DNA from: a virus
Lineage: Duplodnaviria > Heunggongvirae > Uroviricota > Caudoviricetes
IMG/VR virus record: IMGVR_UViG_3300013837_000016
Length of the DNA: 4,161 nucleotides
Strand: one strand, 5' to 3'
How positions within the stretch are numbered: position 1 is the stretch's first letter; the number at the start of each line of letters is the position of its first letter. Both the position numbers and the translations under genes were made by a program. The notes beneath the pieces are model-generated. The model made no database searches, was not told the origin of the DNA, and worked only from the letters and a program-made list of their open reading frames with translations. Shown piece by piece: positions 1-4,161 of the stretch.

Positions 1-2
1 AG

Positions 3-968
3 CCCCGTGACGAGGTTAAACCTGTACGGTTAGGGGAAATCATTACTGACTACACTGACACGCTTGACAGGCGTCTGAGGAACGGAGAAGAGTCAGATAC
101 CCTGAAGACCGGAATCGAAGAACTTGATGCCATCACCGGAGGGATGAACGCGGAAGACCTGGTGATAATCGCTGCTCGTCCTGGTATGGGGAAAACCGAA
201 CTGGCGCTGAAGATTGCCGAAGGCGTTGCAAGTCGCGTTATTCCTGGTTCTTACGTCCGGCGCGGAGTGTTGATTTTCTCGATGGAAATGAGCGCATTGC
301 AGATTGCAGAGCGAAGTATTGCCAACGCCGGGAGGATGTCGGTTAGCGTGCTGCGAAATCCTGCATCGATGGATGACGAGGGCTGGGCACGTGTTGCTAA
401 CGGCATGAGTCAGCTTGCAGATTTGGATGTATGGGTAGTCGATGCCTCGCGGTTATCGGTCGAAGAAATACGCTCAATCGCAGAACGGCACAAACAGGAA
501 AATCCAAACCTGTCACTCATCATGGCGGATTATCTTGGCCTGATTGAGAAGCCGAAAGCAGACCGCAACGACCTCGCAATTGCTCACATCTCAGGAAGCC
601 TTAAGGCGATGGCGAAAGACCTGAAAACGCCTGTTATCTCCCTGAGTCAGCTTTCGCGCGATGTTGAGAAGCGACCAAACAAACGCCCGACAAACGCAGA
701 TTTGCGTGATTCAGGAAGCATTGAACAGGACGCAGACTCAATCATCATGCTCTATCGGGAAGCAGTATATGACGAGAACAGTAGCGCCGCACCATTTGCT
801 GAAATCATTGTGACGAAAAACCGTTTTGGCTCGCTTGGTACGGTTTACCAGCGGTTCTGTAACGGACACTTTGTTGCATGTGACCAGGATGAAGCCAGAC
901 AGATTTGCACAGCATCAAATGCACCCGCTGCACGTGGCAGGCGATATGCACAAGGGGCTGACGTATGA
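3..968 (+). CDS. DnaB-family replicative DNA helicase (P22 gene 12-like), 5'-truncated at window edge
   Basis: Open frame runs from position 3 with no upstream stop to TGA at 966-968. The translation contains ...[37 protein letters not shown]..., which matches the DnaB C-terminal RecA-like domain: the TGG loop followed by a Walker A motif (AARPGMGKT). Downstream DxxG/SQLSRD-type motifs are typical of DnaB helicases. It is not lambda P-like. Confidence 0.88.
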
Positions 969-993
969 CCATCTACATCACTGAGCTTGTAAC

Positions 994-1025
994 AGGCCTG
1001 CTGGTAATCGCAGGCCTTTTTATTT
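994..1025 (+). terminator. Rho-independent terminator, tR2-like, immediately after the helicase gene
   Basis: Perfect 8-bp inverted repeat AGGCCTGC (994-1001) / GCAGGCCT (1010-1017) with an 8-nt loop, followed directly by TTTTATTT (1018-1025). Its position between the replication genes and the nin region matches tR2 of lambdoid phages. Confidence 0.7.
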
Positions 1026-1040
1026 GGGGGAGAGTAAATC

Positions 1041-1247
1041 GTGGCTGAGTTAATTTTCTCTGCATTGAGGATTCTCGGTGCTATGTGGATGGTGTCGACG
1101 TTCATTGTGGTTGTCGGAAGTTTTGTCCGGTTGGTAGGCGAAGGTAAAGACCTGGTGGGTGTGCTTTTCGGTAGCATTTTCCTGTGGGTGATTATCGGTG
1201 TTATGCCTGTCGCTGTAGCAAAAATGGCGTGGCGTTTTGTTAGTTGA
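1041..1247 (+). CDS. small hydrophobic protein (68 aa, predicted two transmembrane helices), unknown function
   Basis: GTG start at 1041 preceded by a strong Shine-Dalgarno GGGGGAGAG (1026-1034); stop TGA at 1245-1247. The translation has two hydrophobic stretches (MWMVSTFIVVVGSFV and VLFGSIFLWVIIGVMPVAVA) separated by the charged loop GEGKD. It occupies the slot between tR2 and ninB. Confidence 0.5.
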   Translation: MAELIFSALRILGAMWMVSTFIVVVGSFVRLVGEGKDLVGVLFGSIFLWVIIGVMPVAVAKMAWRFVS

Positions 1248-1254
1248 GGTAACG

Positions 1255-1701
1255 ATGAAGCAAATATACATGCTTCGCAACGAAGCAATCAGAAACAATG
1301 TCATAGACGCAATACTCTCACTCCCCATCGACGACAAGTCACCTCACGAAGTCCACGTTAAAGAAGCCAAGCGGAGTAATCCTCAAAACCGCCTTATGTG
1401 GGCGTTATTGCAGGACGTATCGCGTCAGGTGCTTTGGCATGGAGAGAGACTTGCGCCGGAGGACTGGAAAGATCTGTTCACTGCCCTGTGGCTTAAGACC
1501 AAAAAAATGGAGCAAAGAAGTGCGCCTGGTATCGACGGTGGCGTTGTCATGCTTGGCGTGCGTACTAGCAAAATGCGAAAGGCCAACATGACTGAGCTTA
1601 TCGAAATCATGTTCTGGTTCGGCTCAGAGCGCAACGTGCGGTGGAGTGATGACTCCAGGCGAGAGTATGAATGGTCACAACGAAAAGGGAAGGCTGCATG
1701 A
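1255..1701 (+). CDS. ninB: NinB (Orf) recombination mediator protein
   Basis: ATG at 1255 with SD GAGG 6-9 nt upstream. The 148-aa product (MKQIYMLRNEAIRNN...NPQNRLMWALLQDVSRQVLWHGERL...[20 protein letters not shown]) matches lambda NinB/Orf in length and in conserved blocks (QNRxLWAxLxDVSRQVxWHG, KWSDE-like C-terminus). The six-frame ORF start at 1237 is an upstream in-frame codon lacking an SD. Confidence 0.9.
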   Translation: MKQIYMLRNEAIRNNVIDAILSLPIDDKSPHEVHVKEAKRSNPQNRLMWALLQDVSRQVLWHGERLAPEDWKDLFTALWLKTKKMEQRSAPGIDGGVVMLGVRTSKMRKANMTELIEIMFWFGSERNVRWSDDSRREYEWSQRKGKAA

Positions 1702-2225
1702 CTATCAAATCAAATACGCCATCACACGACAAGGACTGCTGGCAAACGCCGCTTTGGCTTTTTGATGCGCTGGATATTGAGTTTGGATTCTGGCTGGACT
1801 CGGCAGCGAGCGACAAAAATGCTCTGTGCGCTCACTGGCTAACTGAGGCCGACGACGCGCTAAATTCTGAGTGGATAAGCCACGGTGCAATCTGGAATAA
1901 CCCACCGTACAGCAATATCAGGCCGTGGGTGGAAAAAGCCGCTGAGCAGTGCATACAACAGCGACAGACGGTAGTTATGCTTGTGCCAGAGGATATGTCA
2001 GTCGGATGGTTCAGCAAGGCTCTGGAGAGTGTTGACGAAGTTCGCATCATCACTGATGGACGGATTAATTTTATCGAACCATCGACAGGGCTGGAGAAGA
2101 AGGGAAACAGCAAAGGCTCCATGCTGCTGATTTGGCGACCGTTCATCAGTCCTCGACGGATGTTTACTACCGTATCCAAAGCGGCATTGATGGCGATCGG
2201 GCAGGGCGTCAGGAGGGCGGCATGA
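1698..2225 (+). CDS. phage-type DNA N6-adenine methyltransferase (orphan; Dam-like phage family)
   Basis: ATG at 1698 overlaps the ninB stop (ATGA), with SD AAGGGAAGG upstream. The 175-aa product carries the catalytic motif IV NPPY (..[14 protein letters not shown]..) and an N-terminal CWQTPxxLF block typical of small phage N6-adenine methyltransferases. The six-frame ORF start at 1671 is an upstream in-frame codon. Confidence 0.75.
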
Positions 2226-2374
2226 GGCGACAGCGACGAAGTTTCACCGACATCATCTGCGAAAACTGCAAATACCTTCCAACGAAACGCTCCAGAAATA
2301 AACGCAAGCCAATCCCAAAAGAATCTGACGTAAAAACCTTCAATTACACGGCTCATCTGTGGGATATCCGGTGA
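2222..2374 (+). CDS. ninE: NinE protein
   Basis: ATG at 2222 overlaps the methyltransferase stop (ATGA), with SD AGGAGG 5 nt upstream. The 50-aa product [50 protein letters not shown] is near-identical to my recollection of lambdoid NinE. It was too short to appear as a separate ORF in the track, whose entry begins at 2132. Confidence 0.85.
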
Positions 2375-2400
2375 CTAAGACATCGTGCGAGGAAATGACA

Positions 2401-2760
2401 ATGGATTATTCACAGTTAAGTGATTTTGAAATTAACAAGCGAGTGGCAATTTGCTGTGGATTTGCTCCCGAAGATTGCGAAATCGCAAAGTTGGGAACAT
2501 CAATCGTTGGTGTTGAGTGGGATGACGAAACTGGTTATGCAATAAAAACGGTTGATTACTGTAAAAGCCCATCAGACGCAGAGCCGATTATCGTAGAGAA
2601 CAGAATTGGCATTATTCCAGCGCCAGAAAATGGATTATGGAAGGCAGCGCATAGAAAAGTTGGCAGTGATAGTACCCCATATCATATGAATCAAGATGAA
2701 AACCCACTCCGCGCTGCCATGATTGTCTTTCTCATGATGCAGGACGCCAATAATGCTTAG
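2401..2760 (+). CDS. acidic hypothetical nin-region protein (119 aa), unknown function
   Basis: ATG at 2401 with SD GAGG (2389-2392) 8 nt upstream; the ATG at 2395 abuts the SD, and the track's 2359 start overlaps ninE. Stop TAG at 2758-2760. I count 19 Asp/Glu against 10 Lys/Arg, giving a strongly acidic protein with 4 Cys. It has no lambda counterpart at this position; it may belong to a conserved phage DUF family, which I cannot confirm without a search. Confidence 0.6.
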   Translation: MDYSQLSDFEINKRVAICCGFAPEDCEIAKLGTSIVGVEWDDETGYAIKTVDYCKSPSDAEPIIVENRIGIIPAPENGLWKAAHRKVGSDSTPYHMNQDENPLRAAMIVFLMMQDANNA

Positions 2761-2929
2761 CCCATCCCAATCCCTTCAATACCAGAAAGAAAGCGTCGAG
2801 CGGGCTTTAACGTGCGCTAACTGCGGTCAGAAGCTGCATGTGCTGGAAGTTCACGTGTGCTCCGATTGCTGCGCAGAACTGATGAGCGATCCGAATAGCT
2901 CAATGTACGAGGAAGAAGACGATGGCTAA
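2753..2929 (+). CDS. ninF: NinF protein (58 aa, Cys-rich)
   Basis: Not in the ORF track (below the size cut-off). ATG at 2753 with SD AGGA 8 nt upstream; it overlaps the previous gene's stop by 8 nt. The translation [58 protein letters not shown] is near-identical to lambda NinF and contains CxxC...CxxCC. Stop TAA at 2927-2929. Confidence 0.85.
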
Positions 2930-3533
2930 ACCAGCGCGAAGACGATGTAAAAACGATGAATGCCGGGAATGGTTTCACCCTGCATTCGCTAATCAGTGGT
3001 GGTGCTCTCCAGAGTGTGGAACCAAAATAGCACTCGAACGACGAAGTAAAGAACGCGAAAAAGCGGAAAAAGCAGCAGAGAAGAAACGACGACGAGAGGA
3101 GCAGAAACAGAAAGATAAACTGAAGATTCGAAAACTCGCCTTAAAGCCCCGCAGTTACTGGATTAAACAAGCCCAACAAGCCGTAAACGCCTTCATCAGA
3201 GAAAGAGACCGCGACTTACCATGTATCTCGTGCGGAACGCTCACGTCTGCTCAGTGGGATGCTGGACATTACCGGACAACTGCTGCGGCACCTCAACTCC
3301 GATTTGATGAACGCAATATTCACAAGCAATGCGTGGTGTGCAACCAGCACAAAAGCGGAAATCTCGTTCCGTATCGCGTCGAACTGATTAGCCGCATCGG
3401 GCAGGAAGCAGTAGACGAAATCGAATCAAACCATAGCCGCCATCGCTGGACTGTCGAAGAGTGCAGGTCCATCAAGGCGGAGTATCAGCAGAAACTCAAA
3501 GACCTGAGAAATAGCAGAAGTGAGGCCGCATGA
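2922..3533 (+). CDS. ninG: NinG (Rap) recombination-associated structure-specific endonuclease
   Basis: ATG at 2922 overlaps the ninF 3' end by 8 nt, with SD GAGGAAGAAG upstream. The 203-aa product starts [33 protein letters not shown]..., has a lysine/glutamate-rich coiled segment and a C-terminal Cys/His cluster (CISCG...HYR...CVVCNQHK). Length and sequence match lambda NinG/Rap. Confidence 0.9.
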
Positions 3534-3736
3534 CGTTCTCAGTAAAAACCATTCCAGACATGCTTGTTGAAGCATACGGAAACCAGACAGAAGTAGCACG
3601 CAGACTGAAATGTAGTCGCGGTACGGTCAGAAAATACGTTGATGATAAAGACGGGAAAATGCACGCCATAGTCAACGACGTTCTCATGGTTCATCGCGGA
3701 TGGAGTGAAAGAGATGCGCTATTACGAAAAAATTGA
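3530..3736 (+). CDS. ninH: NinH, small Fis-like DNA-binding protein
   Basis: ATG at 3530 overlaps the ninG stop (ATGA). The 68-aa product [39 protein letters not shown]... is near-identical to lambda NinH and contains a helix-turn-helix-like segment ([18 protein letters not shown]). Confidence 0.9.
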
Positions 3737-4161
3737 TGGCAGCAAATACCGAAATATTTGGGTAGTTGGCGATCTGCACGGATGCTACACGAACCTGATG
3801 AAAAAACTGGAGACGATAGGATTCGACACCAAAAAAGACCTGCTTATCTCGGTTGGCGATTTGGTCGATCGCGGTACAGAGAACGTCGAATGTCTGGAAT
3901 TAATCACATTCCCCTGGTTCCGAGCTGTACGTGGAAACCATGAGCAAATGATGATTGATGGCTTATCAGAGCGTGGAAACGTCAATCACTGGCTGCTTAA
4001 TGGCGGTAGTTGGGTCTTTTATTTCGATTACGCCAAAGAAACCCTGGCAAAAACCTTTGCCCACAAAGCAGAAAAACTTCCATTAACACACAAAACGGGG
4101 GGCAAAAGAAAAAAACCGCCCCTTAACAACATCCCCGGGCCGCGGGGCCCCCCCCACCCCC
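3714..4161 (+). CDS. ninI: NinI-like Ser/Thr protein phosphatase (lambda PPase family), 3'-truncated; tail from about 4087 unreliable
   Basis: ATG at 3714 with SD GGAG 8 nt upstream, overlapping ninH by 23 nt. This frame is absent from the ORF track because no stop occurs before the window end. The translation [80 protein letters not shown]... carries the metallophosphoesterase signatures GDLHG, GDLVDRG and GNHE. After about 4087 the translation becomes implausible. Confidence 0.85.

Follow-up and report, generated by a model that had tools for sequence, protein, structure and literature searches.

Organization of the locus

The 4,161-nt stretch of DNA analysed here (the window) carries on its + strand, in this order, the genes for a DnaB-type replicative helicase, ninA with the terminator tR2, a small open reading frame termed orf68, ninB, dam, ninE, ninX, ninF, ninG, ninH and ninI. 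In profile searches NinB, NinE, NinX, NinF, NinG and NinH all scored above the Pfam gathering cut-offs, with the lambda/P22 order kept. The helicase gene lies directly 5' of the nin chain and Q falls beyond the end of the window; in the closest relatives, mEp213, HK544 and the AVS0969 prophage, Q is found directly 3' of ninI. The genes are closely packed, with ATGA stop/start overlaps at the helicase/ninA, ninB/dam, dam/ninE and ninG/ninH junctions, overlaps of 8 nt at both ninX/ninF and ninF/ninG, and an overlap of 23 nt at ninH/ninI. Such packing, with its ATGA motifs, has been described as typical of lambdoid nin genes (PMC8022706).

The helicase gene is represented by its 3' part (positions 1-968; P22 gene 12/HK97 gp55 type), which matches PF03796 DnaB_C with an E-value of 4e-72 and runs off the 5' end of the window. 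A premature stop in this gene, as might be read from an open reading frame list that begins an ORF at position 144, was rejected, since no stop interrupts the frame from base 3 onwards. The product shares 99.6% amino acid identity with the helicases of HK97 and mEp213 and lacks similarity to lambda P; thus, the replication gene upstream of the nin chain departs from lambda too.

A ninA-like mini-ORF of 27 codons (965-1048) overlaps the helicase stop at its 5' end through an ATGA motif and the orf68 start at its 3' end. Its first 23 residues are identical to the annotated P22 NinA, and one position differs in lambda. The segment 965-1034 shows 95.7% nucleotide identity to the lambda ninA/tR2 segment, which begins with the ren stop codon, and 97.1% to VT2-Sakai. 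It contains a tR2-type intrinsic terminator (994-1027) with an 8-bp G+C-rich stem, an 8-nt loop and a T-run, the hairpin of which (994-1017) was located by the terminator scan and has a predicted RNA fold of -16 kcal/mol (z = -2.1). By alignment this element coincides with annotated terminators of P22 (L2, "similar to lambda") and HK620 (tR2). The ren slot, from the helicase stop to ninA, is empty in the window.

orf68 and the segment upstream of ninB

orf68 (1041-1247) starts with GTG, encodes 68 amino acids and lies between tR2 and ninB, directly before ninB, at a place where lambda has 7 nt. It matches phrog_1165 over its full length (E = 4e-36), while searches of Pfam, NCBIfam and PADLOC returned no match for it. 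The product has two hydrophobic segments, at about residues 11-32 and 38-60, and looks like a two-helix membrane hairpin. As judged from its alleles, which are 56-93% identical with a dN/dS of 0.25-0.37 and no indels, orf68 is a genuine gene on which purifying selection acts. Relatives occur in 107 phage records and in 201 protein clusters; every one bears the name "hypothetical", and the listed source names are all Escherichia or Salmonella. Carriers include HK022, HK629/630 and many Stx2a phages.

The initial annotation had placed a small membrane protein at the ren position. The two hydrophobic segments agree with the first half of that description; the position does not, since orf68 lies 3' of tR2. 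A tblastn comparison of orf68 with the lambda locus gave no match anywhere, Ren included, and Ren relatives, among the records listed, adjoin lambda-type P. Annotations of matches in HK630 and HK620 would equate orf68 with "ninA", an assignment that we rejected because in P22 and HK620 the name ninA belongs to the ORF of 26-27 codons that runs across tR2 (965-1048 in the window). orf68 is an ORF separate from ninA and has been left unannotated in HK620 and HK022.

ninB and dam

ninB (1255-1701; PF05772, E = 1e-48) encodes an Orf-family recombination mediator and is present as a VT2/933W-type allele, its product being 100% identical to that of the E. coli AVS0969 prophage, 88.5% identical to that of VT2-Sakai and only 42.6% identical to that of lambda; no match between ninB and lambda was detected at the DNA level. 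Both ninB and ninX have been described as divergent members of the nin region between phages P22 and L (PMC8022706), and the gene context of orf is conserved across lambdoid phages (PMC4118853).

dam (1698-2225), with an ATGA overlap at each end, encodes an orphan phage N6-adenine DNA methyltransferase of the M.EcoVT2Dam type. The product matches PF05869 over profile positions 1-167 of 169 (E = 9e-65; 218 bits against a cut-off of 28.1) and the TIGR01712 equivalog with 263.6 bits against a cut-off of 97.05, contains NPPY as the catalytic (D/N)PP(Y/F) motif, and is 98.9% identical at the amino acid level to Dam of VT2-Sakai; a PDB sequence search returned no match. VT2-Sakai Dam is M.EcoVT2Dam, with a listed specificity of GATC (PMC6602927), and through this near-identity we infer the same specificity for the enzyme encoded in the window. 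Such an enzyme would most likely methylate replicating phage DNA and so shield it from restriction at unmethylated GATC sites, and it would also compensate for incomplete methylation by the host Dam. An orphan GATC methyltransferase is plausibly one cargo gene with a part in phage-host conflict. Relatives of this protein outnumber those of lambda NinC in the phage collection (244 records at a minimum of 95% amino acid identity against 64 at a minimum of 60%), and the view of the lambda gene order as canonical is accordingly not borne out.

ninE, the ninX cassette and ninF

ninE (2222-2374; PF05322, E = 2e-36, profile positions 1-50 of 58) ends eight codons early through a TGG to TGA change at 2372-2374, a stop found in the window alone in an alignment of seq­uences, seven in all. 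Beyond it lies a cassette that is delimited by DNA breakpoints (2396-2786), consists of ninX together with the final 3 nt ahead of the full-length ninE stop on one side and the opening 11 codons of ninF on the other, and replaces 33 nt of lambda. The matches to lambda, HK97, HK022, HK620 and mEp213, and that to the ninB-dam-ninE block of VT2-Sakai, all stop at 2395 and, among these relatives, the five that have ninF restart at 2787 in the DNA alignment.

ninX (2401-2760) encodes an acidic alpha/beta protein of 119 amino acids (pI 4.5) that matches PF10765/DUF2591 along the entire profile (positions 1-114 of 114), scoring 78 bits where the cut-off is 22.6, and phrog_444 with an E-value of 1e-40. 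The initial annotation had noted an extra acidic protein between ninE and ninF; this protein is indeed present here and absent from lambda, and it can be identified as a P22-type NinX in the same position as in P22. ninX likewise occupies the ninE-ninF interval of HK544, Oslo, vB_EcoP-611R6 and two E. coli prophages. Structural modelling predicts that NinX, which belongs to a widespread phage family, is well folded with an alpha/beta architecture; its closest structural counterparts are uncharacterised proteins, two solved structures among them. A PDB sequence search with NinX gave no match. In literature searches the term "NinX" led to little besides nickel-nitrogen chemistry and, in the portions of the literature covered, "DUF2591" received passing mention in phage genome papers.

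The following gene, ninF (2753-2929; PF05810), has a P22/HK544-type N-terminus that travels with ninX, and its product is 96.6% identical to those of P22 and HK544 and 85% identical to that of lambda.

ninG to ninI and the 3' end

The distal genes are of lambda type. ninG (2922-3533; PF05766, E = 3e-91) encodes the Rap branch-specific endonuclease, with 97.5% amino acid identity to the lambda protein, and ninH (3530-3736; PF06322, E = 2e-44) encodes a product 100% identical to lambda NinH. ninI, for a Ser/Thr phosphatase, is represented by its 5' part (3714-4086), 88.7% identical to lambda NinI over 124 amino acids, and runs off the end. The last ~75 nt (4087-4161) contain no ninI match and decay into homopolymers, and the DNA matches to relatives all end at 4086 or 4115. 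This tail is probably an untrimmed low-quality read end, that is, sequencing noise, with ninI reliable to about position 4086.

Cassette boundaries and prevalence

Breakpoints were mapped by DNA comparison with lambda, HK97, HK022, HK620, mEp213, P22, HK544 and VT2-Sakai, and gene identities were determined against ten reference loci. The cassette edges fall at 1034/1041, 1247/1254, 1692, 2395/2396 and 2786/2787; all are sharply defined, none lies farther than about 35 nt from a gene end, and they recur across many phages. orf68 is shared with HK022, HK629/630 and Stx2a phages, the ninB-dam-ninE block is of the VT2-Sakai/933W type, ninX and the 5' end of ninF are of the P22/HK544 type, and the stretch from the ninF body through ninI (2787-4086) aligns to lambda without a gap at 95.8% nucleotide identity. 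Further positions vary among the relatives, namely the ninB-dam gap (HNH), the ninF-ninG gap (Roi/KilAC), ninG itself (DUF1364 plus RusA) and the segment after ninH.

These alignments to lambda, P22, HK97 and VT2-Sakai confirm that the region is mosaic relative to lambda, as had been proposed, and the lambdoid nin region has been described as "typically mosaic" (PMC2629481). The proposal of three cargo substitutions holds in content, in that lambda possesses ren, ninC and ninD, with no gene separating its ninE from its ninF, and fails in number, at least five positions being variable. Similarly, of the supposed conserved backbone ninB-ninE-ninF-ninG-ninH-ninI, ninE and the stretch from the ninF body through ninI are shared with lambda, and ninB is not.

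The exact combination of genes is rare. Using colinearity of positions 1041-2929 at a coverage of at least 80% as the criterion, it was found in none of 50,697 phage records and in no more than 34 of the 5,426 complete E. coli genomes, so the assortment in the window is not a standard arrangement. Judging from the breakpoint positions, the combination probably arose when lambdoid phages or prophages sharing a host cell recombined, with exchange in the conserved segments flanking the variable ones (ninA/tR2, ninE and the ninF body).

Expression of the gene chain

A simple consensus scan, which weak or activator-dependent promoters could escape, found no sigma-70-like promoter on the + strand of the whole window. 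The sole strong + strand terminator detected by the terminator scan is tR2, upstream of orf68, dam and ninX, and a search of Rfam at gathering thresholds found no RNA family in the window. Taken with the start/stop overlaps, the lack of a + strand promoter and the presence of tR2 alone upstream indicate that the genes are read within the early rightward operon rather than as autonomous prophage units. As the anatomy of the locus suggests, all genes 3' of tR2 would be expressed only after antitermination of the N type in lytic growth and would be silent in a repressed prophage; their location behind tR2, the missing + strand promoter-like site and the several start/stop overlaps all point this way. 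The genes of the nin region are dispensable (PMC10695390), and the earlier description of a non-essential nin region finds support here in a gene chain that sits behind a predicted tR2 hairpin homologous to the lambda segment.

Interpretation and alternatives

We conclude, with a probability of roughly 0.88, that the window derives from a lambda-like E. coli phage or prophage and represents part of its delayed-early rightward operon, with an ordinary mosaic nin region assembled from circulating cassettes. Nin mosaicism, the P22 ninX, the Dam of HK97 and Stx phages and a small ORF upstream of ninB are all already present in published genomes. The practical yield is a precise breakpoint map of nin cassettes, which also singles out orf68/phrog_1165 and NinX/PF10765 as conserved nin-region proteins and cheap genetic targets.

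The foremost alternative, which we regard as unlikely, is that all three positions belong to a hotspot dedicated to host-interaction genes, with orf68, Dam and NinX acting as defence, anti-defence or moron effectors. Dam lends itself to an obvious anti-restriction reading and matches the "orphan methyltransferase" models of PADLOC; NinX is acidic and a compositional outlier; small membrane proteins are a frequent type of phage exclusion factor; and a gene annotated as "Lar-like restriction alleviation protein" lies directly upstream of ninB in Stx phages, as ren lies upstream of tR2 in lambda. The expectation that other phages would carry defence or anti-defence genes at the same junctions finds some support in these last two examples upstream of ninB, but the other occupants are DNA-metabolism genes (HNH, RusA and the PAPS-reductase-like NinC) or regulators (Roi/KilAC). 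When eight window proteins were searched against PADLOC-DB 2.0, orf68, NinB, NinE, NinX and NinF matched no model, NinG and NinH gave weak matches only (E = 3e-4 to 4e-3), and Dam matched only orphan methyltransferase and MTase_II models; the locus was therefore rejected as a known defence system. The uncharacterised structural matches of NinX likewise lend the host-interaction reading no support. The nin proteins of known function (NinB/Orf, NinG/Rap, RusA and NinH) act in DNA recombination or binding (PMC4118853), and with orf68 and NinX lacking any PADLOC match the claim of a hotspot for host-interaction functions rather than core machinery is not upheld.

The moron interpretation of orf68, dam and ninX fared no better and was rejected on the absence of a + strand promoter site in the consensus scan: none of the three genes is bracketed by such a promoter or by a terminator besides tR2, and each overlaps or abuts its neighbours. 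A moron-type deviation in base composition applies to ninX, which is unlike the neighbouring genes (GC 0.425, GC3 0.375), and not to dam (GC 0.521) or orf68 (GC 0.478). That orf68 or NinX is an undescribed delayed-early counter-defence or host-takeover factor strikes us as quite improbable; if true, the segment upstream of ninB and the ninE-ninF gap would be exchange points for such factors.

It is very unlikely that Dam is a functional replacement of lambda NinC/NinD, an alternative allele doing an equivalent job in the same slot. The methyltransferase gene does lie between ninB and ninE in the window, HK97, HK544, mEp213 and VT2-Sakai, where lambda has ninC and ninD, and to this extent the initial annotation of a methyltransferase at the ninC/ninD position was correct. 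An exchange of one for the other is nevertheless contradicted by Salmonella phage Oslo, which carries ninB-dam-ninC-ninD-ninE in tandem; this co-occurrence indicates independent insertions and deletions rather than alternatives. In addition, the interval from ninB to ninE holds ninD alone in P22 and is empty in HK620 and vB_EcoP-611R6, HNH accompanies dam in the CFSAN061762 prophage, and the proteins belong to unrelated families (PF05869 versus a PAPS-reductase-like protein).

Finally, the poor sequence at the 3' end (about 4087-4161) and a ninE stop found in none of six compared relatives mean that the sequence quality is not perfect, but the notion that the mosaic arose artificially, through chimeric assembly or a clone joining different prophages, is scarcely credible and was rejected for positions 1-4086, since each junction is present in at least one independent genome and near-identical stretches of independent complete genomes span every internal junction: AVS0969 covers 1-2436 (98.8%, gapless), CFSAN061762 covers 1-1721 and 1734-2924 (98.0% over the latter), HK544 covers 1692-4086, and both HK544 and lambda cover 2787-4086.

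Comparison with known phages and prophages

In lambda the order is P-ren-ninA/tR2-ninB-ninC-ninD-ninE-ninF-ninG-ninH-ninI-Q. The window shares with it ninA/tR2 (95.7% nucleotide identity), ninE (95.2%) and the stretch from ninF codon 12 through ninI (95.8%), whereas lambda has P and ren in place of the DnaB-type helicase, ninC and ninD in place of dam, and neither orf68 nor ninX.

The P22 order is 12-ninA-ninB-ninD-ninE-ninX-ninF-ninG-ninY-ninH-ninZ-23. Like the window, P22 has a DnaB-type helicase (93% amino acid identity), a ninA that holds tR2, and the ninE-ninX-ninF-ninG order with the same overlap pattern; the flanks of ninX are nearly identical, with a nucleotide identity of 96.4% over 2228-2450 and 91.3% over 2704-3533. 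It differs in lacking orf68, in having ninD where the window has dam, in another ninB allele (42% amino acid identity), in a diverged central part of NinX (42% amino acid identity), in the presence of ninY and in the replacement of ninI by ninZ.

Phages of the VT2-Sakai/933W type share the ninB-dam-ninE block at 94.8% nucleotide identity over 1254-2395. Their helicase is only 35% identical at the amino acid level, four other small ORFs, including one that carries a Lar-like annotation in a relative, lie upstream of ninB, Roi precedes ninG, and ninX, ninF and ninI are missing.

HK544 and HK97 have helicases about 99% identical to that of the window at the amino acid level, but gp56/gp60-type ORFs instead of ninA/tR2 and orf68 between helicase and ninB, and a lambda-type ninB allele (43% amino acid identity). 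HK97 shares dam-ninE at 96.9% nucleotide identity; it lacks ninX, and Roi, gp66 (an annotated HNH endonuclease) and RusA replace ninG. In HK544 the order dam-ninE-ninX-ninF-ninG-ninH-ninI is identical to that of the window, with 94.9% nucleotide identity over 1692-4086 and a NinX that is 74% identical.

The AVS0969 prophage (NZ_CP124475) and no more than 33 further complete E. coli genomes have the arrangement helicase-orf68-ninB-dam-ninE-ninX-ninF of the window. In AVS0969 the products of orf68, ninB and dam are 100% identical to those of the window, from which this prophage differs in its NinX allele (44.5% amino acid identity) and in a KilAC antirepressor gene between ninF and ninG.

Gene content and packing

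Family scans combined with comparison with annotated phages yielded a gene order in which every substantial gene of the window lies on the + strand: the 3' part of a DnaB-type replicative helicase gene (1-968, reading frame open from base 3; PF03796 match, 99.6% amino acid identity to the HK97 and mEp213 helicases), a ninA-like ORF of 27 codons (965-1048), orf68, encoding a 68-residue protein (phrog_1165; 1041-1247), ninB (1255-1701), the orphan methyltransferase gene dam (1698-2225), ninE (2222-2374), the P22-type gene ninX (2401-2760), ninF (2753-2929), ninG (2922-3533), ninH (3530-3736) and the first ~124 codons of ninI (3714-4086). ATGA start/stop overlaps link helicase to ninA, ninB to dam, dam to ninE and ninG to ninH, and further overlaps link ninX to ninF (8 nt), ninF to ninG (8 nt) and ninH to ninI (23 nt). 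All lambdoid nin regions have been described as interlinked gene chains of this kind (PMC8022706). At 2372-2374, ninE has a TGA codon that is TGG in each of the six relatives it was compared with (lambda, P22, HK97, HK544 and two E. coli prophages); the change costs the product its last 8 residues and could reflect a genuine nonsense mutation or an error in sequencing.

The last ~75 nt (4087-4161) resemble no ninI and break down into homopolymer runs of A, C or G ('ggggggcaaaagaaaaaaaccgcccc...ccccccccaccccc'). Mismatches to relatives increase from about base 4010, and all DNA matches end at 4086 or 4115. This end has the look of low-quality read sequence left untrimmed, not of a recombination breakpoint, and ninI, listed in the initial annotation as part of the backbone, is represented by its 5' part.

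Breakpoints and mosaicism

As originally proposed, gene content differs from that of lambda (P-ren-[ninA/tR2]-ninB-ninC-ninD-ninE-ninF-ninG-ninH-ninI). Identity to lambda DNA is 95.7% over 965-1034 and 95.2% over 2229-2395 (ninE), with similarity absent over 1035-2228; 2396-2786 is a 391-nt insertion, made up of ninX and the first 11 codons of ninF, opposite 33 nt in lambda, and 2787-4086 is 95.8% identical and gap-free. Conservation of the backbone with lambda holds for ninE and from the ninF body through ninI, but not for ninB, which lacks a DNA match and whose product is 42.6% identical to lambda NinB; its amino acid identity is 88.5% to VT2-Sakai, 91% to mEp213 and 100% to an E. coli prophage. 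The edges at 2395 and 2787 recur against HK97, HK022, HK620 and mEp213. The HK022 match (994-1247, 95.7%) runs precisely to the stop codon of orf68, that of VT2-Sakai covers ninB-dam-ninE (1254-2395, 94.8%), those of HK97 and HK544 begin at 1692, 6 nt upstream of the dam start codon, and P22 matches at either end of the ninX cassette (2228-2450 and 2704-3533) and not in its centre. The alignments indicate a patchwork with seams at or within ~35 nt of gene ends, in which conserved segments (ninA/tR2, ninE and the ninF body) flank the variable pieces. An assembly artefact as the source of this mosaic was ruled out, since each seam is covered by a near-identical stretch of an independent complete genome (the E. 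coli genomes AVS0969, 1-2436, 98.8%, gap-free, and CFSAN061762, 1734-2924, 98.0%; phage HK544, 1692-4086).

The small membrane protein had been assigned to the ren position. Instead, orf68 lies downstream of tR2, after 965-1034, which corresponds in lambda to the stretch from the ren stop codon to a point 7 nt short of ninB; the ren slot, from the replication gene to ninA, is empty. Among the records listed, Ren relatives adjoin lambda-type P, and the window has another, DnaB-type replication module.

Probable expression within the early operon

An intrinsic terminator lies inside the ninA-like ORF, with an 8-bp G+C-rich stem (994-1017) followed by a T-run; its hairpin (-16 kcal/mol, z = -2.1) aligns onto the annotated tR2/L2 terminators of P22 and HK620. 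The hydrophobic mini-ORF, annotated as ninA in P22 and HK620 and near-identical in lambda, P22 and VT2-Sakai, shares its first 23 residues with P22 NinA (one difference in the lambda equivalent) and overlaps the orf68 start at its 3' end.

A consensus scan found no promoter-like site on the + strand across the whole window, and tR2, which lies upstream of orf68, dam and ninX, is its only strong + strand terminator. Taken with the overlaps between start and stop codons, this suggests that the three genes are read within the early rightward operon after antitermination. A moron is an autonomous unit expressed from a repressed prophage, and a prophage-encoded defence gene would need the same. Judged from these signals, orf68, dam and ninX would not be such units, contrary to the suggestion that they are moron genes.

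The orf68, Dam and NinX proteins

The dam product is an intact enzyme of the PF05869/TIGR01712 family carrying an NPPY motif, 98.9% identical to VT2-Sakai Dam, the orphan enzyme M.EcoVT2Dam, for which GATC specificity is listed (PMC6602927). No restriction partner is present in the window, and the most likely role of Dam is methylation of replicating phage DNA. GATC occurs 5 times in the whole window against ~15.8 expected from base composition, despite the GATC-type Dam encoded by the phage; GATC-poor prophage regions have been reported earlier (PMC6602927).

A conserved GTG start, a length fixed at 68 residues, a pair of hydrophobic segments and dN/dS values of 0.25-0.37 (alleles 56-93% identical) mark orf68 as a real gene. 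All 201 of its protein clusters bear the name "hypothetical", the listed source names are all Escherichia or Salmonella, and Pfam, NCBIfam and PADLOC gave no match. The last ~20 residues (WVIIGVMPV.VAK.AWRFVS) are near-invariant even in alleles 56% identical overall (window versus HK620 and mEp213), which could reflect functional constraint or a conserved recombination junction beside ninB.

The acidic protein between ninE and ninF is indeed present, but it is NinX (PF10765, "Bacteriophage P22, NinX"; 78 bits, cut-off 22.6) and not extra cargo, occurring at exactly the same place in P22, HK544, Oslo and vB_EcoP-611R6. In an alignment of window 2401-2757 with 39 homologues, NinX is mosaic in blocks: its N-terminus (MDYSQLSDFEINK), central DYCNNPxDAWPII motif and C-terminus (NPLRAAMIVFLMM) are conserved, and homologues differ in how the intervening blocks are combined.

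The reading as a host-interaction hotspot was not supported: orf68 and NinX, both PADLOC negative, gave no positive sign of a host-conflict role, and the nin genes with assigned functions act in DNA recombination or bind DNA (PMC4118853). For plaque formation, the region can be dispensed with in its entirety (PMC10695390). Should orf68, dam and ninX act in host conflict, counter-defence during lytic growth would be the more plausible direction, which Dam fits.

Variable positions and prevalence

Variation among relatives extends beyond the three slots first envisaged. The helicase-ninB interval carries ren, HK97 gp56/gp60, four small ORFs (VT2-Sakai; one annotated in a relative as "Lar-like restriction alleviation protein") or two extra ORFs (vB_EcoP-611R6); ninB-dam carries HNH in CFSAN061762; ninB/dam-ninE carries ninC and ninD, ninD alone or nothing; ninE-ninF carries ninX, another ORF or nothing; ninF-ninG carries Roi/KilAC; the ninG position carries DUF1364 and RusA; and downstream of ninH lies ninI, ninZ or nothing. 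The methyltransferase does lie between ninB and ninE, but dam and ninC/ninD are not alternatives, since all three co-occur in Salmonella phage Oslo (ninB-dam-ninC-ninD-ninE-ninX-ninF). In Stx phages, the ORF adjoining ninB upstream and overlapping its start is a RefSeq 'Lar-like restriction alleviation protein' (locus L011 2309-2545, phage SH2026Stx1; locus L009 4809-5045, VT2-Sakai H0103); it occupies the position of orf68, with no detectable similarity to it.

Members of the orf68 family are present in 107 phage records (72 at >=80% amino acid identity), among them HK022, HK75, HK629/630, Stx2 phage 86 and numerous Stx2a phages, Dam in 244 (>=95%) and the NinX family in 598 (Escherichia, Salmonella, Klebsiella, Vibrio and others), the window's NinX allele (>=99%) in two only. 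Lambda NinC is found in only 64 (>=60%) and Ren in 148 (>=80%); lambda is no "canonical" reference for cassette positions. Window 1041-2929 was colinear at >=80% coverage in no phage record and in at most 34 of 5,426 complete E. coli genomes: single cassettes are common and the exact combination is rare. Tested as a possible common ancestral arrangement, the window's order proved not to be one, because no nin arrangement is standard and not because this one is special. Unrelated Vibrio phages (~49 kb; e.g. OZ196641 K142, OZ196172 K197, OZ195803 K193) carry homologues of NinX (37-39% amino acid identity), lambda NinC (PAPS-reductase-like, 34%) and PF05869 Dam (42-43%), so these 'nin' accessory genes circulate far beyond enterobacterial lambdoid phages.

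The initial annotation was thus a correct but imprecise account of a well-known phenomenon assembled from known parts. Of the closest arrangements, that of the E. coli AVS0969 prophage agrees in gene order as far as ninF, differs in its NinX allele and carries KilAC in addition; HK544 shows the window's order for dam and everything downstream of it, P22 shares ninE-ninX-ninF-ninG, and VT2-Sakai shares the ninB-dam-ninE block.
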